From Aciduliprofundum boonei T469 (GTDB lineage: Archaea; Thermoplasmatota; Thermoplasmata; Thermoplasmatales; Aciduliprofundaceae): 32,000 bases of DNA. This document shows, piece by piece, positions 5,665 to 26,938 of the stretch. Both the position numbers and the translations under genes were made by a program. The stretch covers positions 1,454,779 through 1,486,778 of the forward strand of contig NC_013926.1 in NCBI RefSeq assembly GCF_000025665.1. Direction: 5' to 3'. The notes below the pieces were generated by a model that saw only the letters and a program-made list of their open reading frames with translations, was not told where the DNA came from and searched no databases. Positions within the stretch are counted from its first letter, which is position 1. Every line of letters begins with the position of its first letter.

Positions 5665-6077
5665 TCTCCAACAATCTGCACTGCAATGCGCCTGTGCCTT
5701 CTTCTCACATCCAACTCCACAAACACTATTTGTTGCCATGTACCCAGAATCAAGTTTCCGCCTACAATGGGCACACATAAATCTGGTTTTAAAAAGGACG
5801 CCCTTATGTGTGAATGCCCATTTCCATCATGCCATGTCTTTTCATGCTCGTAATTTATGTTTTTTGGAAAAAGTCTTTCTAATGCAGCAGGAAGATCCTT
5901 TTTCAATCCCGGCTCGTACTCAATCGTAGTTATAGCCCCTGTGGAGCCTATTACAAAAACCAAAGCCAAGCCGTTCTTTATACCAGATCTATCTACAACA
6001 CTCTGAACCATACCTGTTATATCAATTATATCCACTTCTCCAGCAGTGCTCAAATTTATCTCTTCATAATAATTCAT
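5661..6077 (-). CDS. YjbQ/UPF0047 family protein (secondary thiamine-phosphate synthase-like), 138 aa
   Basis: HEKTWHDGNGHSHIRASFL...ILGTWQQIVFVELD is the hallmark of the YjbQ family. Confidence 0.85.
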   Translation of the reverse strand: MNYYEEINLSTAGEVDIIDITGMVQSVVDRSGIKNGLALVFVIGSTGAITTIEYEPGLKKDLPAALERLFPKNINYEHEKTWHDGNGHSHIRASFLKPDLCVPIVGGNLILGTWQQIVFVELDVRRRHRRIAVQIVGD

Positions 6078-6314
6078 TTACTTCACCCTCATAGCAAGAT
6101 GAGTAGTTACAGTACTCACCCTCCCAAACTGCTCTATAAAGCTTGATGCTAGCTCCTCGTTGGGCGCTTCAAAAACAAGGACTACATCTGGCTTTCCAAA
6201 AATTTCAAGTTTTTCTCGAATTTTAATGCCTTCCGGAACATTCATATTACGCAATAGATGAAATAAATCGGCGAACCTCTCTGGATTTGCTGTGGCAAAC
6301 ATAATGAATATCAT
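6078..6314 (-). CDS. GYD-domain-like small protein, 78 aa
   Basis: IFGKPDVVLVFEAPNEELASSFIEQFGRVSTVTTHLAMRV resembles the GYD-domain core (G.YD.v.i.EaPddeta....l.l...G.v.T.tl.A). Its stop codon abuts the yjbQ-like start codon (6078/6077). Confidence 0.5.
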   Translation of the reverse strand: MIFIMFATANPERFADLFHLLRNMNVPEGIKIREKLEIFGKPDVVLVFEAPNEELASSFIEQFGRVSTVTTHLAMRVK

Positions 6315-6346
6315 AAAAATAGGAAAAATTGTAATGAATATAAGTT

Positions 6347-8215
6347 TTACTTTTTCAAAACATCTTCTATCTTGAACTCTTTCCCCTCTTTCAATTTTTT
6401 AACGAAGAACTCTGAAAAGAGCTTGTATCTCTTACTTCTGTGCCTTGGCTTGCCCCGGATACTGTGCCCATGCTCTCCTTGCTTAAAAATCACTATGTAT
6501 GTCTCTTTTCCCAAAGATTTTAGCACATGATAGAACATAAGGCTCTGGTCTAGAGGGCACCGATAATCCTCCAAACTGTGTATGAATAACACAGGGGTTT
6601 TCACTGCCTCTGCATAGAACAACGGACTCAATTTTTTGTAGTTCTCATTCTCCAGAGGGTTATCACCTATAACTTCCCTGTCAAACCATAGCCCTATATC
6701 TGAAAATGCATAGGAAGTGAGCCAGTAAGATATTCCGTTCTCACTTATGGCCGCCTTGAATTTATCTGTTTGAGTAATAGCCCAGTTTGTCATATAGCCG
6801 CCATAACTTATTCCTGTTATTCCCAGTTTGTCTTTATCCACATTTTCGTTCTCTATCACCCATTCTAACCCTGCAAGAATATCTTGAAAATCCTCTAAAC
6901 CTGTGCGATTTAGAACTGCCAAGGCAAATTCTTCCGAGTATCCTGTAGAGCCGCGGGGATTCGTAAAGATTACATAGAAACCCATATCGGCCATAAGCTG
7001 CGCTGTATAATGGAAATAATGACCATACATACCCTTTGGTCCTCCATGCACAAACAGAATCGCTGGCAATTTTCTCTTTCCTGCGCCTCTAGGTTTTATG
7101 TACCATCCATCGAGCTCTTTTCCATCAAAGCTCTTGTATTTGAAATGTATGTATTTTCTAGGTTTTAACTTCTTCAAAATCTCAGAATTGTATGAGGTTA
7201 ACTTCTTTAATTCTCCATCAAATATGTACAGCTCTCCCAAGAATGTATCACTCATCATCAAAAATGCGATTTTTCCAGCAGAGCTTACTGCAAAGGAGTA
7301 AACATAGGCATCATTCCCCGCAATTCTAATTTTATTATTTCCTTCAAATTTCTCAAGAACTACGCTACCCGCATCTGCAGTAATTGCATATACATTGCCC
7401 TCAGCATCCAATTTACCTTCAAAATTTTCCAAGCCATAAGAAGCGCTGATCTCTTTCAAATCTTTTCCATCGTATATCATCAGATACCTGTGCTCTGAGA
7501 TGTACTGCATCTCTCTCTTTCCGAGCATAAGCAGAACCTTGTTATTGGAATCCACCGGATAGAAAGGTACATTCTCAAACATCTTCCTTTTCTTTCCCTT
7601 ATAAGCAAAAATATCGAAGGACTTAAACGGATTCTCTCTGCGAGCAATTGTGTATATTATCTCATCTCCGTGCCACAAGGCATTTTCCACATATTTATCC
7701 TCAAATTCATCTACAACTACTTCCCCTTCAGTGTCGTAAATCTGGATGATATTTTTCTCACAATCTCTAAATCCCTTGCCATTGAACCATACGGGAACAG
7801 AGTCATCATAGTAAAGATCCTCGTCTTCCAATTTCTTAGAGTACAATATTAGAATTTTCCTAGAATCATTGTGCCAATCCATACCTATGATATTCTTCGC
7901 TTCTATCAACCTCTTGGATGTCATAGTATCAAGTTCTAACAAATAAAGATCACTCCTTTTCTTGTCCTCATCTACGCGCAAATAGAGCATCTTCTTTCCA
8001 TCTGGAGAGAACTTGGGCATAGAGGCATCTTCCACATACCTTCTCTTCCCACTCTCAAGGTCCTCTATAACCATTGTATTTTCGTACTTGTTTTCTTTCA
8101 TATTCACCTTGCGAAGAACATAGGCAACCAAAGAGCCGCTGCTAGTTATATCCACATCCTGAAGATATGAGAACTTTGCAAATGTATCTTCTTTCCATCT
8201 CATTTTAATCGCCAT
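6347..8215 (-). CDS. S9-family serine peptidase (acylaminoacyl-peptidase/prolyl-oligopeptidase type), 622 aa
   Basis: N-terminal beta-propeller-like region, then a C-terminal alpha/beta hydrolase domain. The hydrolase has GISYGGYM (nucleophile Ser), HSLEDYRCP (Asp) and GEHGH (His). Confidence 0.9.
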   Translation of the reverse strand: MAIKMRWKEDTFAKFSYLQDVDITSSGSLVAYVLRKVNMKENKYENTMVIEDLESGKRRYVEDASMPKFSPDGKKMLYLRVDEDKKRSDLYLLELDTMTSKRLIEAKNIIGMDWHNDSRKILILYSKKLEDEDLYYDDSVPVWFNGKGFRDCEKNIIQIYDTEGEVVVDEFEDKYVENALWHGDEIIYTIARRENPFKSFDIFAYKGKKRKMFENVPFYPVDSNNKVLLMLGKREMQYISEHRYLMIYDGKDLKEISASYGLENFEGKLDAEGNVYAITADAGSVVLEKFEGNNKIRIAGNDAYVYSFAVSSAGKIAFLMMSDTFLGELYIFDGELKKLTSYNSEILKKLKPRKYIHFKYKSFDGKELDGWYIKPRGAGKRKLPAILFVHGGPKGMYGHYFHYTAQLMADMGFYVIFTNPRGSTGYSEEFALAVLNRTGLEDFQDILAGLEWVIENENVDKDKLGITGISYGGYMTNWAITQTDKFKAAISENGISYWLTSYAFSDIGLWFDREVIGDNPLENENYKKLSPLFYAEAVKTPVLFIHSLEDYRCPLDQSLMFYHVLKSLGKETYIVIFKQGEHGHSIRGKPRHRSKRYKLFSEFFVKKLKEGKEFKIEDVLKK

Positions 8216-8238
8216 GGTAGAATAGTGTTCATCTATAT

Positions 8239-8604
8239 TTATTTCTCTTCAACATTTCTCGTAGCAATAATATTTACCCCGAGGTCTAAAATATTCTCAA
8301 CAACAATATCTCCTACTTTTATCGGGGCTAATGCTTCAACATTTGACAGATATTTCATAATCTTTCTAATCATATCCTTGGGTACAGGCTTATCTGTTTT
8401 TACTGATACAATGGGATATTCACCATTTTTGACCTTAACAACGCTCATTACTATCCTCTTCGGCTCCAATATCTCCTCTCGAACCCACTCCTCCCCCCTA
8501 GAGCATCTGCATCCCCGAATTTTTAAATCACTCCCGTTTAATTCAGCCTCAATATAACAGCCTAAAGGACATATTATACAAGTAAATCTATATAACTTGG
8601 ACAT
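8239..8604 (-). CDS. DUF1667-domain Cys-rich protein, third subunit of the GlpA-like flavoprotein operon, 121 aa
   Basis: FTCIICPLGCYIEAE...IRGCRCSRG. The ATG at 8604 overlaps the upstream gene's TGA by 1 nt. Confidence 0.75.
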   Translation of the reverse strand: MSKLYRFTCIICPLGCYIEAELNGSDLKIRGCRCSRGEEWVREEILEPKRIVMSVVKVKNGEYPIVSVKTDKPVPKDMIRKIMKYLSNVEALAPIKVGDIVVENILDLGVNIIATRNVEEK

Positions 8605-9833
8605 CACTCCACCTCCAAAGTCAACTCTTTTATTTCCTTCTGTATTTTTTTCACTGGTAACCTAATTTTCAACATCTCGGAAGGTTTGACTACTGGATAT
8701 TTTATTTTATATCCTATATCCCCAAATTTTAGAGTGACATTTTCCTGTGGATTTTTCACTCTTGCATAAAAGATTACATTTTTTTCTCCGCTTATATAAT
8801 GGGGTACCACAAATCTCAGATTTCCCTCAATTTTTATCTTTATTTTTCGGGAAGATGGAAGGTTATTATCCACATAGTTTTTAGCAGAGAAAGCAGCTAA
8901 CTCACCCTGCTCAACCACATAGTCCACAAGGTCATTTATAATTAAAGAATTACCTGCAACAAAAATCCCTCTCACACTGGTTTCTAAATTCTCATCAACC
9001 ACAGGACCTCCTGTACGGGCGTCTATATCAATACCTATTTTTTCTAACAACTTAACACGAGGTACTAATCCTGCAGATATTATCACGGTATCGCATTCTA
9101 TATCAAATTCAGTACCTTCTACAGGTTCCAACTTATCGTTTACTTTAACTACTTTAACACTCTCAACTCTATTTTTACCTCTTATTTCTATGACTTTATG
9201 TGAGAGATATAATGGAATTGAAAAATCTTGGAGACATTGAATAATGTTTCTTGCTAAGCCTCCCGGATAAGGCATAAGCTCTATAACTGCCTTTACCTCA
9301 GCACCTTCCAAAGCAAATCTTCTCGCCATTATAAGCCCAACATCTCCAGATCCTACGATCACTATCTCCTTTCCAGGCATAATCCCATAAATATCCATCA
9401 TAGTTTGGGCTTCGCCTGCAGTGAACACCCCTGCCACTCTGTCCCCCACGATACCTATTTCAAATCTATGTCTTTCCCTCGCTCCCGACGCGTATATTAT
9501 ACTTTTAGTAAGCACTTCTTCTAACCCCTGTGGCGATACATATTTCACCCTTTTTAGTTCTTCCTCCACTGAAATATCAAGTACGGTTGCCTCTGTGATG
9601 TATTCAACATTTAAACTCCTGAATTTTTCTATGAGTTTATGAGCAAATTCTGGACCAGTTAAATCTTCTTTAAAATAGTGTAGACCGAATCCTGGATGAA
9701 TACATTGAGGTAATATTCCTCCAAGGTATTCCTTCTCATCTAAAAGCAAAACCTTGAGTCCCAATTCTTTGGCTTTTATGGATGCCGCTAATCCGGCAGG
9801 GCCTCCCCCTATCACCACTGTATCGTAAATCAT
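8604..9833 (-). CDS. NAD(P)/FAD-dependent pyridine-nucleotide-disulfide-type oxidoreductase, 409 aa
   Basis: Two dinucleotide-binding motifs: VVIGGGPAGLAAS and IVIVGSGDVGLIMA. ATGA overlap with the upstream gene at 9830-9833. Confidence 0.8.
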   Translation of the reverse strand: MIYDTVVIGGGPAGLAASIKAKELGLKVLLLDEKEYLGGILPQCIHPGFGLHYFKEDLTGPEFAHKLIEKFRSLNVEYITEATVLDISVEEELKRVKYVSPQGLEEVLTKSIIYASGARERHRFEIGIVGDRVAGVFTAGEAQTMMDIYGIMPGKEIVIVGSGDVGLIMARRFALEGAEVKAVIELMPYPGGLARNIIQCLQDFSIPLYLSHKVIEIRGKNRVESVKVVKVNDKLEPVEGTEFDIECDTVIISAGLVPRVKLLEKIGIDIDARTGGPVVDENLETSVRGIFVAGNSLIINDLVDYVVEQGELAAFSAKNYVDNNLPSSRKIKIKIEGNLRFVVPHYISGEKNVIFYARVKNPQENVTLKFGDIGYKIKYPVVKPSEMLKIRLPVKKIQKEIKELTLEVE

Positions 9834-11311: not shown

Positions 11312-11593
11312 TTAACTCACCTGAACATCGGAGTATTTCTTTGACTTATTAAATCATTTGCCAATTTAAATTACAAAAACAATATACTAAAGCATCCTAT
11401 CAATAACTTGCCCATTTCTCCCCCCTTTTTGAGAGCTCCTATCTAGAAGCTTCTGCGTATCCCTTTACCTCTTGAAACCATTTTAAAAATTTTCTTTTGG
11501 GGTAAATGAGCATCGTGATATGCGAACACGCCCTGCTACGCAGGGCAGTGGCACTTTTCTTTTTAAGAAAAGGGCTCTAAGAAAGGGGCTTAA

Positions 11594-11678
11594 TGCGGGG
11601 GGCCGGATTCGAACCGGCGAACCCCTACGGGAGTGGATCTTGAGTCCACCGCCTTTGACCTGGCTCGGCAACCCCCGC
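11594..11678 (-). tRNA. tRNA-Leu (anticodon CAA), type II with long variable arm, CCA not encoded
   Basis: Hand-folded minus strand: GCGGGGG-TT-GCCGAGCCAGGTCAAAGGCG-GTGGA-CTCAAGA-TCCAC-TCCCGTAGGGGTTC-GCCGG-TTCGAAT-CCGGC-CCCCCGC-A. It has a 7-bp acceptor stem, 5-bp anticodon and T stems, and a GTTCGAATC T-loop. Confidence 0.95.
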
Positions 11679-11700
11679 TCGGTTGGGAAATTGTCATTTA

Positions 11701-11714
11701 GGATTTAATTTTTT
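11701..11714 (-). promoter_or_regulatory. TATA-like box for tRNA-Leu
   Basis: The minus strand reads aaaaaattaaatcc, centred about 27 nt upstream of the tRNA 5' end. Confidence 0.35.
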
Positions 11715-11763
11715 CTGGAGTAAAGCGTAAGTTATATATTTGGAATGGGCATTAGGCGCTATA

Positions 11764-12585
11764 ATGAAAGCATCTACTTACGCTATACTTGTAACGGTTA
11801 TGGTTCTAGCAGGTGGTCTTGGGGCCTATTTCTGGGGCACTCAAGGTCACAGCTCTGAAAGCGTTCCAATAGTGAAACAAGGAGACACCATCTCTGTAAA
11901 ATATTACGGCTACATTTATTATGGTGGAGAGCGTAGAATTTTTGATACAAATATAGAGGAAGTTGCAAAGGACAATATCACCTATCCTAAAACTGTGAGC
12001 TTCAAATGGCGTAATGATTTTGAGCCTTTAACTTTCAAGGTTGGAGACCACACAATGATCCCTGGGTTCGAAAAGGGTGTAATAGGAATGAAGTTAAATG
12101 AGACAAAAACAATAGTTGTTCCTCCAAGCGAAGGTTATCCATTCGATTGGTCCAAAGTGCAGAATTATTCTTTAGTACAGACCATTCCCGTTATAGAGAA
12201 TCTCTCTCTTCAAGATTTTAAGAAGAGATTTGGTCAGCAAAATCCACTTGATAATGCTGTGTATAGGGACAAAGTTCATGGTTGGAACTGCCTCATATTA
12301 CAGATAGATGCCACAAAAGGTATAGTCACGATACTTAACGAGCCAAATGTTGGTAAGTATTATCAACCATACAAAAATACAAGTTCCCTAAAAATATATG
12401 TGGAGAAAATCAAAGATGGAAAAATAACCTTCAAGTATGATATAGAGAGTCTACCCATTCTACTTCCAAACGGAGGCATAATTGACTGGAAAAACGATAC
12501 AATGTTCAGAGTGAATCATAACCAAGAAGTTGCAGGAAAAACCTTGTACTTTGTGGTCACGGTAATAAAGATAAAAGAATCTTAA
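11764..12585 (+). CDS. Membrane-anchored SlyD-like FKBP-type peptidyl-prolyl isomerase with an enlarged insert domain, 273 aa
   Basis: N-terminal hydrophobic helix MKASTYAILVTVMVLAGGLGAYFWG. FKBP core: GDTISVKYYGY...FDTN...FKVGDHTMIPGFEKGVIGMKLNETKTIVVPPSEGY. The closing FKBP strand, VNHNQEVAGKTLYFVVTVIKI, appears only at the C-terminus. The track start is TTG 11740. ATG 11764 fits the TATA-like gttatatatt (11731-11740), which lies about 28 nt upstream. Confidence 0.85.
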   Translation: MKASTYAILVTVMVLAGGLGAYFWGTQGHSSESVPIVKQGDTISVKYYGYIYYGGERRIFDTNIEEVAKDNITYPKTVSFKWRNDFEPLTFKVGDHTMIPGFEKGVIGMKLNETKTIVVPPSEGYPFDWSKVQNYSLVQTIPVIENLSLQDFKKRFGQQNPLDNAVYRDKVHGWNCLILQIDATKGIVTILNEPNVGKYYQPYKNTSSLKIYVEKIKDGKITFKYDIESLPILLPNGGIIDWKNDTMFRVNHNQEVAGKTLYFVVTVIKIKES

Positions 12586-13001
12586 ATTTCTTCCACAAAT
12601 TTTTTAAAATTGCTTATGGCTTTACCTTTTTTCATAGGATAACTTTCGAGCTTTGCATGCATTGCTATTGAGTCACCATGTATGGTCAGGGCTAGCTTTT
12701 CCAAGTACGCCTGCTGCTTATCAAACCTCAAGTATAGCATGCCTTGCTCATCCACAATTTCATCTAACATAGGGAGAATTTCATCAACGATTCCGTAATC
12801 TTTCATTCTCCTCCAGAATTCAACAACTTCGTTTTTCTTTGTAATTTTTGTTTCAAGAATTATTATTTTATTTCCATAATAGCCCTTTTCTTCCCTCTCC
12901 TTAAAATTATCTTTTTGGGTTATGAATTTAAATGCTTTTCTTACCTTATCAATATCCTCGGTTGCATGGGCAAAGCATCTAAAATAGATGTATTTGATCA
13001 T
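12582..13001 (-). CDS. DUF54/COG1931 predicted RNA-binding (exosome-associated type) protein, 139 aa
   Basis: YFRCFAHATEDIDKVRKAF...GYYGNKIIILETKITKKNEV...LYLRFDKQQAYL...GDSIAMHAKL follows the DUF54 pattern. The 233-aa track ORF has a low-complexity extension that overlaps trmB; I reject that extension. Confidence 0.7.
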   Translation of the reverse strand: MIKYIYFRCFAHATEDIDKVRKAFKFITQKDNFKEREEKGYYGNKIIILETKITKKNEVVEFWRRMKDYGIVDEILPMLDEIVDEQGMLYLRFDKQQAYLEKLALTIHGDSIAMHAKLESYPMKKGKAISNFKKFVEEI

Positions 13002-13020
13002 AAGGGTGAATGGAAGAACA

Positions 13021-13032
13021 CAAATATATGTT
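13021..13032. promoter_or_regulatory. Single shared AT-rich TATA-like box in the 46-bp DUF54/trmB divergent spacer
   Basis: In caaatatatgtt, the core aaatatat (13023-13030) lies about 22 nt from the trmB ATG (13048) and about 25 nt from the DUF54 ATG (13001). Confidence 0.4.
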
Positions 13033-13047
13033 TCACTATTTTGGTTT

Positions 13048-13758
13048 ATGGACATGGATTCCGCTATTGAAGAGTATAAAAAAATTGTAGATAGCCTTGA
13101 AAAATTGGGATTATCCCAGTATGAAATCAAGGCATTTCTTGCATTGATAATGCTCGGTGTAGGCTCTGCTGAGATCATTGCAAAAAACGCAAAGATTCCA
13201 AGAACTTCTGCATACAAGGTTCTTGATTCCCTGGAGGAAAAGGGATTCATCATATCCTCAGAAGGGAGACCAAAGATGTACAAGCCAGAAAACCTTCAAA
13301 CTTTGAAAAATAGAATAATAGAAGAAATAGAAGAACTATTCGAAAAACTGCAATTTGTAGAAAGCATATTTATGGAGAAGGGCGAGCCACAACTTGTGTA
13401 CACAGTATATGGCAAAGAGAAGGTTATGAAAAAAATCGCAGAGATGATTGATTTATCCGAGGAAGAGATAATAATATCCACGCCAAAAATATCAGAGCTT
13501 AGAAAATCTGTGGAAAAGAATATTGAAAGGGCGCTTAAGAGAGGAGTAAGAATAATAGTTGTAACGCATCCAAATCAAAGAGTGCCTCCAGGAGTGATTG
13601 CATATAGAAAAAAAGGGCTTATGGCCACGGATATAGTGTGTGATAATAAAAGCGCCTTACTTGCATCTCCCGAGCTAAACGCATGCGGATACACGGATAA
13701 TCCCGCATTAGCACAGCATTTAACACATTTCATAAACATACTCATTGAGAAGGAATAA
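13048..13758 (+). CDS. TrmB-family transcriptional regulator, 236 aa
   Basis: LGLSQYEIKAFLALIMLGVGSAEIIAKNAKIPRTSAYKVLDSLEEKGFI is a TrmB N-terminal winged helix, followed by a TrmB-type C-terminal domain. The start is moved to ATG 13048 (MDMDSAIEEY). Confidence 0.8.
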   Translation: MDMDSAIEEYKKIVDSLEKLGLSQYEIKAFLALIMLGVGSAEIIAKNAKIPRTSAYKVLDSLEEKGFIISSEGRPKMYKPENLQTLKNRIIEEIEELFEKLQFVESIFMEKGEPQLVYTVYGKEKVMKKIAEMIDLSEEEIIISTPKISELRKSVEKNIERALKRGVRIIVVTHPNQRVPPGVIAYRKKGLMATDIVCDNKSALLASPELNACGYTDNPALAQHLTHFINILIEKE

Positions 13759-13813
13759 TGTCATCAAAAGTGATAATGATAAGTTTTAAATCATATGAAT
13801 TTATTGATAATTT

Positions 13814-14161
13814 GTGGGCATTAAAATCCTGCTGGTGGATGATAACGAGGAATTGCTAAAGTTATACAGTATATTCTTGAAGAGGTACGAGGTAATAACG
13901 GCAAAGAATGGGAAGGAAGGGGTGGAATTGTATATGAAATATAATCCGGATCTTGTGATTATGGACATAAAAATGCCCGTGATGGACGGAATTGAAGCAA
14001 CAAAGGCCATAAAGGAATACGATAAAGATGCAAAGATAATTGGGGCAACTGCATACCATGATAAATACGCAGAGAAAATGTTAGAAGCAGGAGCTCTTGT
14101 GGTTATGAAAAAGCCATTTAAGTATAGAGAAATTTTAGATCTCATTGAGAAGTATATATGA
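13814..14161 (+). CDS. Stand-alone CheY-like response-regulator receiver domain, 115 aa
   Basis: ILLVDDNEE (acidic pocket), VIMDIKMP (phospho-acceptor Asp), GATAY (Thr) and KKPF (Lys). It has a GTG start. The TATA-like ttttaaat (13784-13791) lies about 26 nt upstream. Confidence 0.88.
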   Translation: MGIKILLVDDNEELLKLYSIFLKRYEVITAKNGKEGVELYMKYNPDLVIMDIKMPVMDGIEATKAIKEYDKDAKIIGATAYHDKYAEKMLEAGALVVMKKPFKYREILDLIEKYI

Positions 14162-15500
14162 TTTTCCCATCTACTATTGTGAGCCATATTTTATCATCTT
14201 TCAAAACCACCAAATCTGCGATATTTCCCTCTTTTATTTCACCATACCTATTCCCAAAATATTTTGCACCATGGGTATACGCTCGTACCGCTTCATTCCA
14301 GCTTATCCTCTGGCTATCGTACTTGCTATTCACGGCCATTTTTATCCCGTATAAGGGGTCCATGGGCATACAATCTGATCCAAATAGAAGATTCGCACCA
14401 CTATCCAAAATATTCCGATATGGATTATTCCTGCCAAGCCATTCTTTCCCGAGCATTCTTTCATAGAGCCCTCCACTCTTTGCCCATTTTAGAAAATTCG
14501 GCTGCATACTCAACTCAATTCCTTTCAACTCTTCCAAATATTCTTGCCTAACTAACTCGAAATGCTCAATTCTATTTCCCTCGCCCCCTTTATATCCCCT
14601 CAAAACCTCATCTATAGCATAATCTCCGATAGCATGGGTGAATACCCTTATCCCCTCTGAGTTTGCATTCTTTACAATTCTTCTTATCTTTCTAGCCGAG
14701 AGCATTGGTTTTACTTCCTCTCCATCCTTATAAAGTGTGGCCGCAGTTTTAGCACCAATGGAGCCATCTGCAAAGAGCTTTAGAGCACCTATTCTAAGAT
14801 ACTCGTCTCCAAACCCTGAGTAAAAACCAAGTTTTTTAATCAATTTGTAACCAGAGGAATAAAAATTAGCGTAAATTCTTATCTTTAACTTTCCCTCCCT
14901 ATGCATTCGCATATAAGCTTTAAGAGTATCAACACTTGCAAAATCGTGCACACAAGCAATGCCCTTGCTCAAAGCATAATTCTGTGCGTATTCAAAATCA
15001 AATGTAGATCCTATTTTCAATTTTTTAATTATCCTTTCCAATTCTTTTTCTTTAACAATTCCCTCTTTTCCAACTGAAAAAATTTTGGAAGTGTAAGAAT
15101 TGATAACCCCCATATGGCCATCTTCCCTGATTAGCAATACAATCTTATCGCTGCAAACATTGTCAATTTCCTCTTTTGTAATGTATTTTTTATCTTTCCA
15201 AAAACTCTCGTCCCAACCTCTGCCAATTACCATTTTCTTCTTTTTGCATTCTTCTTTGACCATGCCCAAAATCTCTTCTCTTCCCCTGTTCGTCAAATCC
15301 AAGGTTCCATGCATAAGTGCAATATTACTCAAATGAGTGTGTGAATCGCAGAATGCCGGAATAATAAATGCTCCCTTCAAATCAATCTTCTTTGCCTCGT
15401 AGGGTAAATTTCCCTTACCCAGTTTCTCAATTCTATTGTCCCTTATGAGTATGTACTCATAATCCTCATTTCCGAATATGCGAGCGTTATAAAGGAGCAT
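14142..15500 (-). CDS. Metal-dependent amidohydrolase (Amidohydro_3/YtcJ-like), 452 aa
   Basis: PAFCDSHTHL (HxH metal motif), THAIGD, FGSDCMP. Confidence 0.8.
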   Translation of the reverse strand: MLLYNARIFGNEDYEYILIRDNRIEKLGKGNLPYEAKKIDLKGAFIIPAFCDSHTHLSNIALMHGTLDLTNRGREEILGMVKEECKKKKMVIGRGWDESFWKDKKYITKEEIDNVCSDKIVLLIREDGHMGVINSYTSKIFSVGKEGIVKEKELERIIKKLKIGSTFDFEYAQNYALSKGIACVHDFASVDTLKAYMRMHREGKLKIRIYANFYSSGYKLIKKLGFYSGFGDEYLRIGALKLFADGSIGAKTAATLYKDGEEVKPMLSARKIRRIVKNANSEGIRVFTHAIGDYAIDEVLRGYKGGEGNRIEHFELVRQEYLEELKGIELSMQPNFLKWAKSGGLYERMLGKEWLGRNNPYRNILDSGANLLFGSDCMPMDPLYGIKMAVNSKYDSQRISWNEAVRAYTHGAKYFGNRYGEIKEGNIADLVVLKDDKIWLTIVDGKIIYTSQ

Positions 15501-22547: not shown

Positions 22548-22796
22548 ATGGATTCAAAAGACCTCATTGATTTGAAAATCGAGAAAACCCTATACCCATT
22601 ATTTGGAAACCTCAGTGAAATTATCGTTGAAGTCAACAAAAAAAAGGTGAATAGAAACGGCCTTAATGAAAAGGAGTATGCAAAAATTATGAGTGAAGAG
22701 ATAAAAAGATTTATCGAAAGATTTGCAGGGGAGGAGCTTGCAGACAGGACATATAGAGAGCTTTTAAATTCTTTAAAATTTGAGATAGGTGAGTAG
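22548..22796 (+). CDS. Hypothetical small charged, probably helical protein, 82 aa, translationally coupled to the KaiC-like gene
   Basis: MDSKDLIDLKIEKTLYPLFGNLSEIIVEVNKKK...EEIKRFIERFAGEELADRTYRELLNSLKFEIGE. I recognise no family. The TATA-like ttttatata (22516-22524) lies about 28 nt upstream of ATG 22548. The stop (22794-22796) is 1 nt before the KaiC-like ATG. Confidence 0.5.
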   Translation: MDSKDLIDLKIEKTLYPLFGNLSEIIVEVNKKKVNRNGLNEKEYAKIMSEEIKRFIERFAGEELADRTYRELLNSLKFEIGE

Positions 22797-22797
22797 G

Positions 22798-23508
22798 ATG
22801 GAGTTTATAAACACCTATGTTAAGGGGCTTGATGAGCGAATAGAAGGTGGAATCCCGAAGGGCTCTGTAATTTTAATTTCTGGGCCTACTGGCAGTATGA
22901 AGTCCAGCTTCAGTTTCTACATTGCCTACAATTATCTAAAGGACAAAAAAGAGGGAAATGTTGTGTACATTTCCTTAGAACAGAGCAGGGAGAGTTTGAT
23001 AAATCAAATGGTAAATTTGGGAATGGATATAGATAAACTGCCAAAAAATTGCGAATTCAATATATTTGATTGGGGATTGGTTAGAAAGATAGTAAAAGAT
23101 GCAGGAAAGCATGAAAAGGTGAACTGGCTAGATACTATAATAAATCCAGTTAAAGAGTTTGCAAAGAACAAAAAATTGGATTTCGTGATTTTGGACTCGC
23201 TTAACGCCCTTTATGCTATCTCTAACTTGGAGAATCCAAGAAACCAATTATTCTTCCTCTTTGAAGCCATGAGAGAATTAGGTGCCACAACCCTGGCCAT
23301 ATCAGAAACAACTTACAACTCTATGCAATTTGGAACTTACGATGTTGAAGGCTTTTTGGCTGATAGCATAATCCATCTTTCTATGGAAAGGATAGGAAGA
23401 ACATTAGGGAGGTACATATCAATAATAAAAATAAGGGGAGTTAAACACTCTACAGATTACTATCCGCTCTTGGTAGATAAGAAGGGATTTAGAATTATAT
23501 CCCACTGA
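22798..23508 (+). CDS. Single-domain KaiC-like/RecA-superfamily ATPase with a non-canonical Walker A, 236 aa
   Basis: GLDERIEGGIPKGSVILISGPTGSMKSSF (Walker A region), VVYISLEQS, LDFVILDSLNAL (Walker B strand), SIIKIRGVKHS...Y. Alternative start GTG 22789. Confidence 0.85.
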   Translation: MEFINTYVKGLDERIEGGIPKGSVILISGPTGSMKSSFSFYIAYNYLKDKKEGNVVYISLEQSRESLINQMVNLGMDIDKLPKNCEFNIFDWGLVRKIVKDAGKHEKVNWLDTIINPVKEFAKNKKLDFVILDSLNALYAISNLENPRNQLFFLFEAMRELGATTLAISETTYNSMQFGTYDVEGFLADSIIHLSMERIGRTLGRYISIIKIRGVKHSTDYYPLLVDKKGFRIISH

Positions 23509-26500
23509 TTTTCTTTTTAACTTCTCGCAGTTTATCTTCCAAACCCATCTCTTCATAAAGCTCTATAGCTTTATTTATCTTGTTTTTCCATTCTTTTTTA
23601 TTCTTCTTTAAGAGACACAGTCCGTAATAGTAATATGTCTTAGCCAAATAGATTTTGTAATCCATCTCACCGTACTCCTTTATGGCACTTTCAAATACAT
23701 CTTTTGAAAATTTATCATCTCTCTGACATATAGAATAAGCCTTGAGCACCTCTATATATATTGAGTTGATCACATCATTTATTTTCTTGGCATTCTCCTT
23801 GGCTTTATCCAGCCATTTTAATACCATATCCCAGTTGCCCAAAGCGATATCATATTCTGCATTAACTAGATAATAATCCATTATCAAATAACTCTCCTGT
23901 ACATTCTTTTTCAGAGAATGACTTAACTCGATATACTTCTGCGCTTTTTTAAATTCCTCTAAATGCACATAAGCCCTTGCCATATAAAGGTATATGGAGA
24001 ATAGAATTGTAGTATAGGAATACATCTTTGCAATTTCCATAGCTCGTGAATAAAAGTCAATGGCGTCCATATACTTACCCATCTCCTCATTTATCTCTCC
24101 CAGAGATACCAATCTCTCGCATATACCATACTTGTTATTTAATTTAATTGATATTTCTAAGCTTTTACTTATATGTTCTAAAGCGAGAGAGTAATTTCCA
24201 TGTCTTGAATAGAGAACTGCTATATTATTATGAAATGCCTCCAACAATCTATCGTTGCCAAGCTTTTCAATTATCTCTATAGCCCTTTTGTGATATTCTT
24301 CAGCTTTTTTTAAATCACCCATTTTCTCATAAGTTACTCCTATATTGTTATAGGCTCTTGATAGATATGTTAAATTTCCCATCTTCTCGCTGATCTCAAG
24401 ATACTTTAAGAGATAAGTTAATGCCTCCTCGTAATTATTTAGATGGTTATTTATCACACCTATGACATTATAAGTATCGGCTATCTCCCTTATGTCTCCG
24501 CTCTCCTCTGCAAGCCTAAGAGCTTTCTCCGCATACTTCAGTGCTTTTTTGTAATTTCCCTCCATATAATATACGGAAGCTATATTTCTCGTAGCCTTAA
24601 CTTCATCAATCTTGCTTTCATATCTTTGAGCATAAGCGAGATATTTTCCTAATTTCTCAAGGGATTCCTTAAAATCCCCAGTTTCCCACTCTATTATGCC
24701 AAGTTCTCCAATTATTCTCCCCTTATCCATACCCTTTGCAATCTTAAGGTACTCGTTTAAAATTTCTTTAGCCCTATTTAGCTCACCCATCAACCTATAG
24801 CACATCCCCATTTGAGTGCCAAAATACACAATATCTTCAGGTAGATACTCTGTAGCCCTAGAAAACATCGCTGCTGCTTTTTTGTATTCCCCCACAGAAA
24901 CATACCACTCTCCAAGATCCCTGTACAATTCTCCTATGAGCTCAACTTTTCCATATTTCTCCGCTATTTCAAGAGCCTTTTGGAGATAATCTATGGCGCT
25001 CTTGAAAGCCATCATTTTAGCGGATTCTTCTGCAGCGATTCTTAAAAATCCGACTGCTCGCTCGTCTCTGGCCATATAATAATGATAAGCTGCCATAAAA
25101 AGATCGTTATTTCTTTCTGCCCAGTTCCCAATTTTCCTATGAAAATTAATTCTTGTATCACGAGATATACCCTTGTATATTATTTCCCTGTAGATGGGGT
25201 AAATAAATCTTAGTTTTTTATTTTCCAATATTACAAATATGTTGGAAGGATCCTCCAAGAATTGCTTATGCTCAGGATAAAAAGATTCTACAATACTCAA
25301 AGGGATTTCGTATCCAACCACAGATAAAAACCTAATAAAACTCAAGACATGCTCTTTAAGCTTATCTACTTGCAGCTCCACACTCTCTCTTATCGTCTCC
25401 GGCAGTGAACTTTTGTTTCCTTGCATTATGTATTTTGCCATATTTATTGCCAGTAGAGGATTTCCCTCACTAATCTCATAAATGGATCCAACATCACCTC
25501 TGTATCCCATGCCATAAAGTATATCCTCAATATCCTTCTCTTTTAAAGGCTTTAATCTTAATACCTTAGCGGTGGGCTCATCTTGGATATTTGTGAGAAT
25601 CTCCAGAAGATTCTTATTTTCAACAATATCCTCATTTCTATAAGTGAGGATTATCATTATCCTGCCTTTTCCTATATTCCTAGCAAGATAATATATAAGT
25701 TCTAAAGAATTACTATCTATCCATTGGATATCCTCAAATACCAAAATCATAGGCTTTCTCCTAGAGTTGTAATCTAAGAAATTGTGGATAACATCATAAA
25801 ACTTTACAGGGCCCTCTACTATATCCATCCCCCCATATATTCTATCCTTACCTTCATCTATCAAATCAAAGAAGAACTCTATATCTTTAGAGATGGGTGT
25901 CCTCTCAACTAAATACACCCTCCTTCCATTTTTTCTAGCGTAATCTCTAACCGCCTTTAGCCATATATAAACCCTTCTCTTATCATTATAATGGACTATG
26001 GTGTTAAGACATTCTATTGCAATATCCATCCCATTATCTATTGCCTCCGCAATTTTCTCAAATATTTCAAAATCCAAACGGGTAGGGTGGATGCCTTGTG
26101 GGGATACATAAAGAGTGTTTCCTCCATCTTTTTTATTTGTTAATCTTAAAACATTTTTTTCTCTGACCCTATCAGTAAGAATTATGGTAGGGGGCGTTAT
26201 TTTATCCTCCCATTCAATTAATATTTTTTCATCAAACAGGCTTAGCAGATGCCTCTCCTTCTCAGAGAGGTACTCTATTTTTCCGGAGATTATAATTAAA
26301 TGCCTATTAGAAGCTAAAGAGCGCAAAGTGTGAAGAAAATCCACAACCCTATCTATCCCTGCAATATAAACTAAAAAGTTCAAATCTTCTATGTAAACCA
26401 ATTTTCTCTCACTACTGTTTAAAAATTCGTGTAAATACATTACGAACTCAAACTCGAGATTATACGGATTTATGCTCTCTTTATCCGTTTTCGTCTCTGT

Positions 26501-26938
26501 AAGCCATATGGCATCACTTCGGCTTGGTTGCCTTATTGTGAAATACAATCCTTTCATTCTCTTGCTGAGTTCTTTATATAATCTATATCCTCCTCCGTAT
26601 CCTATTTCATCTACAAATACCATCTTATTCTCTTTATACAATTTTTTTGATATATCTCTTATCTTTCTCTTCCATTCCTTTCTCTTTATCTCGCTCAAGG
26701 TCCCAAAACTACCAAGGGCTTGAGATATGGCATTATAGGGTACATACTGGGTTGATTGCTCACACCTAGTTTTGAGAATTTGAACATCCTTATTATCTTC
26801 CAAAAATTTATCAATAAGATAACTCTTTCCTATACCGGCAGGACCTTCCAGAAGTATAACTTTACCCTTGCCTCTCTTAACCTCATTAAGATACATCTTT
26901 AGATTGTGGAGTTCTTTCTCCCTGCCGACAAAGAGCAT
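23495..26938 (-). CDS. STAND-type (AAA_16-like) NTPase interrupted by two DUF835-like modules, with a long C-terminal TPR array, 1147 aa
   Basis: - aa 1-100: FVGREKEL...LLEGPAGIGKSYL...YVPYNAISQAL.
- aa about 105-245 and about 250-365: DUF835-like modules.
- aa 396-411: PMILVFEDIQWIDSNS (Walker B).
- aa 490-496: SEGNPLL.
- aa about 640-1147: TPR-like repeats (GNYKKALKYAEKALRLAEE, NNYEEALTYLLKYLEISEK, GDLKKAEEYHKRAIEIIEK ...). Confidence 0.85.
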   Translation of the reverse strand: MLFVGREKELHNLKMYLNEVKRGKGKVILLEGPAGIGKSYLIDKFLEDNKDVQILKTRCEQSTQYVPYNAISQALGSFGTLSEIKRKEWKRKIRDISKKLYKENKMVFVDEIGYGGGYRLYKELSKRMKGLYFTIRQPSRSDAIWLTETKTDKESINPYNLEFEFVMYLHEFLNSSERKLVYIEDLNFLVYIAGIDRVVDFLHTLRSLASNRHLIIISGKIEYLSEKERHLLSLFDEKILIEWEDKITPPTIILTDRVREKNVLRLTNKKDGGNTLYVSPQGIHPTRLDFEIFEKIAEAIDNGMDIAIECLNTIVHYNDKRRVYIWLKAVRDYARKNGRRVYLVERTPISKDIEFFFDLIDEGKDRIYGGMDIVEGPVKFYDVIHNFLDYNSRRKPMILVFEDIQWIDSNSLELIYYLARNIGKGRIMIILTYRNEDIVENKNLLEILTNIQDEPTAKVLRLKPLKEKDIEDILYGMGYRGDVGSIYEISEGNPLLAINMAKYIMQGNKSSLPETIRESVELQVDKLKEHVLSFIRFLSVVGYEIPLSIVESFYPEHKQFLEDPSNIFVILENKKLRFIYPIYREIIYKGISRDTRINFHRKIGNWAERNNDLFMAAYHYYMARDERAVGFLRIAAEESAKMMAFKSAIDYLQKALEIAEKYGKVELIGELYRDLGEWYVSVGEYKKAAAMFSRATEYLPEDIVYFGTQMGMCYRLMGELNRAKEILNEYLKIAKGMDKGRIIGELGIIEWETGDFKESLEKLGKYLAYAQRYESKIDEVKATRNIASVYYMEGNYKKALKYAEKALRLAEESGDIREIADTYNVIGVINNHLNNYEEALTYLLKYLEISEKMGNLTYLSRAYNNIGVTYEKMGDLKKAEEYHKRAIEIIEKLGNDRLLEAFHNNIAVLYSRHGNYSLALEHISKSLEISIKLNNKYGICERLVSLGEINEEMGKYMDAIDFYSRAMEIAKMYSYTTILFSIYLYMARAYVHLEEFKKAQKYIELSHSLKKNVQESYLIMDYYLVNAEYDIALGNWDMVLKWLDKAKENAKKINDVINSIYIEVLKAYSICQRDDKFSKDVFESAIKEYGEMDYKIYLAKTYYYYGLCLLKKNKKEWKNKINKAIELYEEMGLEDKLREVKKKISGI

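Follow-up and report, generated by a model that had tools for sequence, protein, structure and literature searches.

The closest described relatives of the protein studied here are PH0952 (6MFV) and MalT, two signal transduction ATPases that contain numerous domains (STANDs) which combine a Walker A motif, a Walker B motif of the hhhhED type, a helical domain with a GxP motif, a winged helix and a C-terminal tetratricopeptide repeat (TPR) or SUPR sensor. Both belong to the AAA_16, or MalT-APAF1, side of the STAND class. According to PMC6468293, STANDs at rest are closed, ADP-bound monomers in which arm and sensor contact the nucleotide-binding domain (NBD); on activation an inducer opens the protein, ATP replaces ADP, multimers form and targets are activated. 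In PH0952, strand S2 and helix H2 are separated by the helices ISM and ISMb, which together with H2 form a tip that is capped by the TPR sensor. Autoinhibition of MalT is relieved by the substitutions M96T and H102Y in ISMb, and a cross-link between residue 96 and the sensor forms in the resting state only (PMC6468293). MalT is also under the control of inhibitor proteins such as MalY (PMC6468293 and PMC10427625). Here we describe Aboo_1546 of the archaeon Aciduliprofundum boonei T469, which lies in a stretch of 32,000 nucleotides (the window; NC_013926.1, positions 1,454,779 to 1,486,778) and which shares all of these domains and, presumably, the mechanism. Unlike PH0952 and MalT, Aboo_1546 has an NBD that is interrupted by 270 residues, at what the predicted topology indicates is the ISM/ISMb/H2 tip, and no terminal effector.

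The interrupting segment consists of two modules of the DUF835 family. DUF835 has been described by Galperin et al. 2018 as 'iKaiC', an inactivated KaiC-like ATPase domain, and listed among the output domains of archaeal response regulators, at whose C-terminus it lies, in REC-DUF835 and REC-PAS-PAS-DUF835 arrangements (PMC5847659).

Results

A STAND ATPase with a divided nucleotide-binding domain

The Pfam model AAA_16 matched the whole of Aboo_1546 with 83.4 bits (cutoff 32.6) in two separate stretches. In segment scans, residues (aa) 3-87 aligned to profile positions 2-85 with 55.7 bits and aa 379-430 to positions 115-167 with 33.3 bits, and in-silico removal of aa 97-369 gave one stretch covering positions 2-167 of 167 with a score of 91.3 bits. 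An original prediction, made from the sequence and its translated open reading frames (ORFs), had already claimed a split AAA_16 domain because of the distance between the Walker motifs, and both the motifs and the anomaly are as it described. The lysine of Walker A (K38 in GPAGIGKS, aa 32-39) and the aspartate of Walker B (D403 in ILVFED, aa 398-403, which IQWID follows and which belongs to a canonical AAA_16 pattern, ED..W.D, at aa 402-408) are 365 residues apart, or 365-370 if close relatives are included. The corresponding distance in an alignment of 28 uninterrupted AAA_16 relatives is 77-137, and 103-137 in all but one of them. The spacing is normal once aa 97-369 are taken out, so that its position outside the usual ~100-140 is due to the insertion alone.

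The same division was seen when homologues with and without the insertion were compared, as the original prediction had proposed. The spliced nucleotide-binding and oligomerisation domain (NOD; aa 1-96 plus 370-640) gave a single BLAST high-scoring segment pair (aa 2-366) with uninterrupted AAA_16 relatives and two with inserted family members, broken exactly at the insert. Furthermore, an AlphaFold2 model of aa 1-640 (mean predicted local distance difference test (pLDDT) 89.2; predicted template modelling score (pTM) 0.78; pLDDT below 50 only at aa 363-374) places two strands ahead of the insert (aa 26-31 and 53-58) and three behind it (aa 397-402, with Walker B, aa 427-433 and aa 457-461). 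Together they make up the five-stranded AAA+/STAND core, and therefore neither half could fold alone. In the model the inserted cassette exits the NBD after helices aa 69-74 and 81-101 and re-enters it just before the helix of aa 377-394. The NBD is thus broken after S2 and the ISM helices and before H2 and S3, the Walker B strand, by a cassette of ~270 residues.

The best matches of this model in a Foldseek search of the PDB were 6mfv_A (PH0952 STAND-TPR) and 8bob_C (MalT). Similarity to these solved proteins is below phmmer detection, as a phmmer search of PDB sequences with aa 1-640 gave no match, and a search of the PDB with the profile of alignment A3 was dominated by TPR proteins and gave no alignment of the NOD. 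Over 35 aligned AAA_16 sequences, G35, G37 and K38, D403, D408 and R434 were nearly invariant, and so were EGNPLL (aa 491-496), F578 and H600, which shows that the helical and winged-helix features of the NOD are present. The TPR arm named in the original prediction was recovered at aa 640-1140 by TPR_12 (190 bits) and TPR_MalT (75 bits). Aboo_1546 is consequently a STAND ATPase of the MalT/PH0952 type, in which a NOD made of NBD, helical domain and winged helix precedes a TPR arm and sensor. As Walker A, Walker B, R434 and GNPLL have all been preserved, the NOD would be expected from its sequence to work still as an ADP/ATP switch.

The gene itself is authentic. An exact-sequence look-up identified the 1147-aa ORF on the minus strand, present where the original prediction had placed it, as Aboo_1546 (ADD09352.1, WP_012997486.1, UniRef100_D3TB73), annotated as 'tetratricopeptide repeat protein' and nothing further. 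It is carried on the isolate's complete genome (1,486,778 bp), and its 90%-identity cluster contains 17 members, nearly all of 1147 aa, from NCBI, ENA and Logan assemblies. These two facts exclude an assembly chimera, a caveat of the original prediction, and so do ~14 divergent clusters with the same layout. All these data make it at least very nearly certain that the cassette is truly nested in the P-loop domain of Aboo_1546, and that the protein is neither a fusion nor a chimera.

No effector family, whether DNA-binding, nuclease or other, was found in Aboo_1546 by Pfam, NCBIfam or PADLOC scans, in agreement with what had been seen by eye. In addition, the NTPase starts at residue 3 and the TPR region runs to the C-terminus, which leaves no separate terminal effector domain. 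Of the 28 uninterrupted relatives, 21 are listed with a domain of the HTH, SARP, cyclase, kinase or TIR type.

The insert is a pair of DUF835 modules with a KaiC-like fold

The resemblance of the insert to the DUF835 consensus had been put forward in the original prediction, and Pfam bore it out, with 64.9 bits on the whole protein (cutoff 33.1) in two stretches. Module 1 (aa 137-233, profile positions 38-133) scored 47.6 bits (E 1.9e-12), above the cutoff, while module 2 (aa 260-339, profile positions 41-113) scored 26.8 bits (E 5e-6) and lies below the Pfam cutoff when scanned alone. The module boundaries given in the original prediction translate correctly (aa 105-245, nt 26204-26626; aa 250-365, nt 25844-26191). 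The first third of module 1 (aa 100-136) is outside the Pfam alignment and is backed by the predicted structure and by a family-profile alignment to DUF835 proteins. Additionally, the FlaH model of NCBIfam matched aa 164-227, within module 1 (E 9e-5).

Modelled alone, the insert reached a pLDDT of 77.7. Chains of the KaiC tandem made up 49 of its top 50 Foldseek matches in the PDB, with ~390-410 columns over both KaiC domains, and the remaining one was FlaH (4yds; 167 columns, root mean square deviation 4.4 Å, TMt 0.47). The modelled modules have a KaiC/RecA-like alpha/beta fold, which they share with KaiC (CI-CII) and ArlH/FlaH; the two-domain tandem is as in KaiC, and the strand equivalent to Walker B is kept. 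Unlike KaiC, the cassette has no P-loop, its modules are ~110-140 aa long instead of ~230, and by sequence it falls outside PF06745, the Pfam family of active KaiC, which matched neither Aboo_1546 nor its segments. The cassette profile found no match among PDB sequences. The original prediction had spoken of whatever DUF835 senses or binds: its presence in the insert stands, but DUF835 is a P-loop-less KaiC/RecA-like domain, a fold that the Foldseek matches confirm, and not an orphan sensor fold.

Alignments agree with this assignment. MVFVDE, at the start of module 1, aligns with the first strand of other DUF835 modules (YLIKE or YLVKE) and with VILISGPTGSMKS, the strand and P-loop of the KaiC-like protein encoded next to Aboo_1546, and LVYIEDLNFL is the counterpart of DFVILDSLNAL, the KaiC Walker B strand. 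The VFVDE sequence was considered as a Walker B motif of the N-terminal P-loop and ruled out, as it is strand 1 of module 1. The scenario raised in the original prediction, of an autonomous ATPase in aa 1-100 with VFVDE as its Walker B, also fails because two strands only precede the insert. A weak alignment of the PADLOC model mad8 (aa 24-294) was likewise considered as a sign of a KaiC-like N-terminal P-loop and rejected, because the N-terminus matches AAA_16 specifically (55.7 bits) and module 1 brings an initial strand and helix of its own.

GK[ST] was absent from the P-loop position of both modules in all 15 family members described below, and the loop that replaces the P-loop after strand 1 varies among them. 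Given the missing P-loop and GK[ST], and modules far shorter than KaiC, neither nucleotide binding nor autokinase activity would be expected of the cassette on sequence grounds, and its likeness to KaiC would at most be one of shape and not of catalysis. With the rest of the DUF835 family the cassette shares the signature WLTE...P..L(D/E)FE...hhh(D/E)xhxYL and the arrangement in tandem pairs, found elsewhere at the C-termini of membrane proteins. It differs from other DUF835 domains in being nested in a P-loop domain instead of terminal and in lacking helix 1 in module 2, and its subfamily has motifs of its own, E(N/D)hNYL and YxWLK.

A family of inserted STANDs and a recurrent insertion site

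The nested layout is kept in ~14 divergent clusters that are 28-59% identical to Aboo_1546. In 15 family sequences spanning this range, the layout, Walker A, the first Walker B acid, R434 and GNPLL are retained, with GK[ST] in 14 of the 15 (P0040 has GKG instead). Mean pairwise identity across the family was 0.32-0.33 for the modules, 0.38-0.39 for the NBD halves, 0.31 for the TPR region and 0.10 for the return linker. The members come from metagenome-assembled genomes (MAGs) of Thermoplasmata/DHVE2, some of which hold several paralogues: the loci L002 and L004 are from the same MAG, and a DHVE2 contig (L003) carries two paralogues, at 5796-9278 and 11560-14988, 2.3 kb apart. In two metagenomic loci with relatives of 58-59% identity the STAND gene was called as two consecutive ORFs, of 301 and 837 aa at L006 5035-8514 and of 641 and 506 aa at L007 3786-7242. 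The break points differ between the two, and the split could be due to a frameshift, an assembly error or decay.

This NBD site also holds other inserts. P0005, which is more distantly related, has just one DUF835 there (25.8 bits; K-to-D distance 265), and the AAA_16-TPR proteins P0011 (aa ~85-235) and P0014 have an unrelated insert of ~110 aa (K-to-D distance 226). The latter, which by eye may resemble Roadblock/LC7, had no named match in Pfam or PDB sequence searches and is homologous to the middle domain of P0100 (aa ~225-385; score 134-137, z 18-19), a protein with the layout DUF835-X-TPR-DUF835. Because these three proteins carry other inserts at the same site, the ISM/ISMb tip may be a general, recurrent acceptor site for accessory signalling domains in AAA_16 STANDs.

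The cassette is older than its place in the STAND

When the insert served as query in a word-indexed search for homologues, one protein was returned. A profile of the insert was searched against 1.84 billion representatives with a threshold of E up to 1e-3, which yielded 280 proteins. The co-linear two-module unit is found among them in three contexts: STAND-TPR proteins, membrane proteins and coiled-coil/Prok-RING proteins (Table 1). As the original prediction had said of DUF835 in general, C-terminal copies in membrane proteins were seen among these relatives. Of the coiled-coil proteins P0047, P0055 and P0056, P0055 was scanned and has a Prok-RING_1 zinc finger of 38.2 bits; this protein and the STAND family member P0039 are from one MAG (GCA_027052275.1), and this type of coiled-coil/RING protein is seen at locus L013 436-3480.

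Module 2 of Aboo_1546 aligned to module 2 of P0055 with a score of 179 (z 29) and to that of P0063 with a score of 83 (z 10), and module 1 aligned to first modules of other proteins with scores of 118-159 (z 16-24). The two modules of Aboo_1546, when compared with each other, reached a local score of 50 (z about 4). The proposal that a domain had been inserted twice is therefore not borne out: since module 2 is far closer to other second modules than to its own module 1, one ready-made two-module cassette entered once. Judged from these sequence comparisons, the differentiated DUF835 tandem is an older, mobile unit that predates its arrival in the NBD, into which it was grafted a single time.

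DUF835 also meets STANDs in linear fusions. P0171, P0178 and P0113 are built from the same three blocks as Aboo_1546, but DUF835 is N-terminal in them and the NBD is contiguous: an intact AAA_16, matched without a break over profile positions 3-167 or 5-167 and with ~90 residues from Walker A to Walker B, is followed by TPR. Their NODs match that of Aboo_1546 with 82-91 bits, no closer than generic AAA_16 proteins, and as they are not close relatives the association of DUF835 with STANDs arose more than once. P0113 has an extra N-terminal region of ~130 aa without a Pfam match. Two other arrangements were found: in P0153 a weakly matched Zn-ribbon is joined by DUF835 and an AAA+ domain of the Mg-chelatase type, and in P0172 DUF835 directly precedes a Walker-B half although the protein as called lacks Walker A, so that either the gene call is truncated or this is one more variant.

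Gene neighbourhood

Aboo_1546 is set among housekeeping genes, and the block made of the genes for SAHH, the STAND, a KaiC-like protein, a small ORF and IF-2B recurs in L001, L006, L007, L009/L010 and L011. Across the window, L006, L007, L009 and L011 the KaiC-like neighbour has 236-239 aa and is 67-83% identical, and in these four other loci a gene of 82-83 aa occupies the position of the small ORF (36-71% identical). When the window was compared with L009 and L011, the flanking proteins (SAHH, IF-2B and KaiC-like) were 67-87% identical and the STAND 40%, which indicates that the STAND evolves much faster. PADLOC assigned no defence system to the locus; it reported generic TPR models and the weak mad8 match already mentioned (E 3.6e-4, aa 24-294).

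Table 1. Features of Aboo_1546, its neighbours and the cassette in other proteins (nucleotide positions of the window unless another locus is named)
Feature	Location	Strand	Basis
Whole Aboo_1546 gene, 1147 aa	23495..26938	(-)	ORF list and exact-sequence look-up
N-terminal NBD part, aa 1-96: FVGRE, strand S1 (aa 26-31), P-loop, H1, S2 (aa 53-58)	26651..26938	(-)	AAA_16 55.7 bits; AlphaFold2, block-mean pLDDT 84-98
Walker A GPAGIGKS, aa 32-39	26822..26845	(-)	Motif and alignment
Helices aa 69-74 and 81-101 after S2 (ISM region)	N-terminal NBD part	(-)	AlphaFold2, block-mean pLDDT 84-98
iKaiC/DUF835 module 1, aa 105-245; complete beta-alpha-beta KaiC-like core without P-loop	26204..26626	(-)	DUF835 47.6 bits; FlaH; secondary structure
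iKaiC/DUF835 module 2, aa 250-362; shortened copy without first helix; R-L-D-F-E and Y-I-W-L-K motifs	25853..26191	(-)	DUF835 26.8 bits; module-2 similarity
Return linker, aa 363-376; predicted disordered, unconserved	25811..25852	(-)	pLDDT <50 at aa 363-374; mean pairwise identity 0.10
C-terminal NBD part, aa 377-465: H2 (aa 377-394), S3/Walker B (aa 397-402), S5 (aa 457-461)	25544..25810	(-)	AAA_16 33.3 bits; secondary structure
Walker B ILVFED, aa 398-403	25730..25747	(-)	Motif and alignment
Strand S4, aa 427-433, TYR motif with R434	Within C-terminal NBD part	(-)	Secondary structure; nearly invariant R434
Helical and winged-helix domains of the NOD, aa 466-640; EGNPLL (aa 491-496), F578, H600	25019..25543	(-)	Nearly invariant columns; secondary structure; Foldseek
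TPR arm and sensor, aa 641-1147	23498..25018	(-)	TPR_12 190 bits in 6 stretches; TPR_MalT 75 bits
KaiC-like single-domain ATPase, 239 aa; convergent, 3' end overlaps the STAND gene by 14 nt; candidate partner only	22789..23508	(+)	PF06745 153 bits
Small ORF, 82 aa from internal Met; overlaps and lies directly upstream of the KaiC-like gene	22548..22796	(+)	No family match
Small ORF and KaiC-like pair; convergent with the STAND gene, overlaps its 3' end	Window 22548-23508; L006 8495-9455; L007 7229-8189; L009 8452-9417; L011 8428-9389	(+) in the window	
Two-module cassette inside STAND-TPR proteins	~14 clusters, 1110-1160 aa: P0001, P0037-P0046, P0051, P0052		
Two-module cassette, C-terminal in polytopic membrane proteins	P0048-50, P0063, P0066		
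Two-module cassette in long coiled-coil proteins ending in a Prok-RING_1 finger	P0047, P0055, P0056		

Discussion

We tentatively favour, at somewhat less than even chances, a reading in which the cassette of Aboo_1546 is a latched output module that possibly addresses KaiC-like ATPases. It is favoured as an output because the protein has no other effector, because DUF835 takes the N-terminal effector position in P0171, P0178 and P0113, and because response regulators use it as an output domain. By analogy with PH0952 and MalT, a role of the cassette at the latch between NBD and sensor is plausible, because by topology the insertion falls at the tip that makes the autoinhibitory contact in those proteins. 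The cassette would project from the ISM/ISMb/H2 tip of the NBD, and the TPR sensor would probably cap or hold it while the protein is at rest. Binding of a ligand to the TPR would then release the latch and allow the exchange of ADP for ATP and multimerisation, which would gather several cassettes; these clustered cassettes would be the output, there being no other effector domain. The likeliest target would be an ATPase of the KaiC/RecA superfamily, such as the adjacent KaiC-like protein, which might be recruited, capped or templated. In its most specific form, which we consider unlikely, the nested pseudo-KaiC cassette would be a STAND effector clamped by the TPR at the ISM tip when off and forming on ATP-driven multimerisation a KaiC-like ring or platform that templates, caps or recruits active single-domain KaiC-like ATPases. 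To our knowledge, no STAND has been described that gives its output by 'induced proximity of pseudo-ATPase subunits'.

Several points weigh against the cassette as a latched output. The assignment of its site to the ISM/ISMb/H2 tip comes from the topology of the model and not from a sequence alignment to PH0952 or MalT, and the joining of the NBD halves in space and the orientation of the cassette are likewise inferred from the order of secondary structure elements, the pLDDT and pTM values and homology. Seven of the 28 uninterrupted relatives also have no recognised effector, so that this absence is not unique to the inserted forms, and we know of no function for DUF835 in any protein. Concerning the nucleotide switch, five of the 15 family members (P0038-P0041 and P0043) carry N or G at the second acidic position of Walker B (hhhhEN or hhhhEG), for which reason ATP hydrolysis may be dispensable; from their sequences, some paralogues may bind nucleotide without hydrolysing it. 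As for the proposed partner, the conserved KaiC-like neighbour was rejected as strong evidence of partnership, because the whole block from SAHH to IF-2B is generally syntenic and because the paralogues in L003 and L008 have no such gene beside them; adjacency is thus weak evidence. Furthermore, the cassette profile did not match the neighbouring KaiC-like protein significantly in hhalign (E 0.19), the strand equivalent to Walker B being aligned.

The cassette could instead be purely an input or gate, a reading that goes back to the original prediction and is doubtful yet deserves attention. The latch between NBD and sensor, and so nucleotide exchange and oligomerisation, would then be controlled by a partner or ligand that binds the cassette, while the output would lie elsewhere, in the TPR scaffold or the oligomer. 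Such a gate would suit an insertion at the ISM/ISMb/H2 tip, since this is the autoinhibitory contact of PH0952 and MalT and mutations at the tip activate MalT (PMC6468293), as well as the control of MalT by inhibitor proteins such as MalY (PMC6468293 and PMC10427625) and the presence at the same site of a single DUF835 in P0005 and of an unrelated domain in P0011 and P0014. However, it would leave Aboo_1546 with two input modules, the TPR and the cassette, and no recognisable output, and DUF835 stands in output positions elsewhere (PMC5847659), including the N-terminal effector position of other STAND-TPR proteins.

It is decidedly unlikely that the dead KaiC-like domains act as a scaffold, providing a self-association surface that stabilises the STAND oligomer without any external partner. 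RecA/KaiC folds form rings, and this explanation draws on the match of the modelled fold to the ring-forming KaiC and FlaH, on a conservation of the modules that is close to that of the remaining protein and on the lack of a consistent gene neighbour across paralogues. It does not explain, however, why the same cassette is present in unrelated coiled-coil/RING and membrane proteins or why DUF835 is an output domain of response regulators (PMC5847659), and the protein would still be without an output.

An antiviral, Avs-like STAND, whose TPR would recognise a viral protein and whose cassette would be a novel toxic or abortive effector, is very improbable. The combination of STAND and TPR is typical of that class, the STAND is 40% identical where its neighbours in the orthologous locus are 67-87% identical, several paralogues are found per genome (L002/L004 in one MAG, two on L003) and the PADLOC model mad8 matches weakly (E 3.6e-4). 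Against this, PADLOC gave no match to an Avs or other defence family beyond generic TPR models, the neighbourhood (SAHH, IF-2B, PGM) is a stable housekeeping one and no variable island, and the cassette has no catalytic motif. Lastly, a simple fusion with an autonomous ATPase in aa 1-100, or a chimera or pseudogene, is scarcely credible, as the fit of VFVDE to the hhhhDE pattern, the span of the weak mad8 alignment (aa 24-294) and the genes split in L006 and L007 are outweighed by the presence of just two strands before the insert, the alignment of VFVDE with the YLIKE/YLVKE strand of DUF835 modules and the strand preceding the P-loop of the KaiC-like neighbour, a canonical Walker B at aa 402-408, a hidden Markov model match that is continuous after removal of the insert, and a complete isolate genome, a 17-member cluster and ~14 divergent clusters with the same layout.

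P-loop folds assembled from two distant halves are known from KAP NTPases, which have transmembrane helices inside the NTPase domain, and from SMC/Rad50, with a coiled coil between Walker A and Walker B. Unlike these, the insert of Aboo_1546 is a pair of globular pseudo-ATPase domains, its host is a MalT-type STAND and its site is predicted to be an autoinhibition surface. A literature search, which did not extend to the listing within the iKaiC-defining paper, found no paper on the nested architecture, the locus tag or the accessions and one paper, among those covered, that mentions DUF835, and the combination of DUF835, AAA_16 and TPR is already visible in automatic Pfam annotations. As large P-loop inserts are known in principle, the interest is in our view chiefly in where this insert sits and what it replaces.

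The gain for annotation is modest, in that Aboo_1546 and its relatives are labelled 'tetratricopeptide repeat protein' or 'AAA family ATPase'. The meaning for the biology of the family depends on the readings weighed above. STANDs such as MalT, Apaf-1, NLRs and Avs are understood as a sensor, a NOD and a terminal effector, and here the only candidate effector would be on the autoinhibitory surface of the NBD. If the cassette is a latched output, a single element would compactly couple 'unlatching' and 'effector exposure', and if it acts as a platform for KaiC-like ATPases, it would connect STAND sensing directly with the KaiC signalling hub that has been proposed for archaea. In addition, the inserted STAND family offers a defined biochemical context in which to assay DUF835/iKaiC, a domain that is widespread in archaeal signalling proteins.

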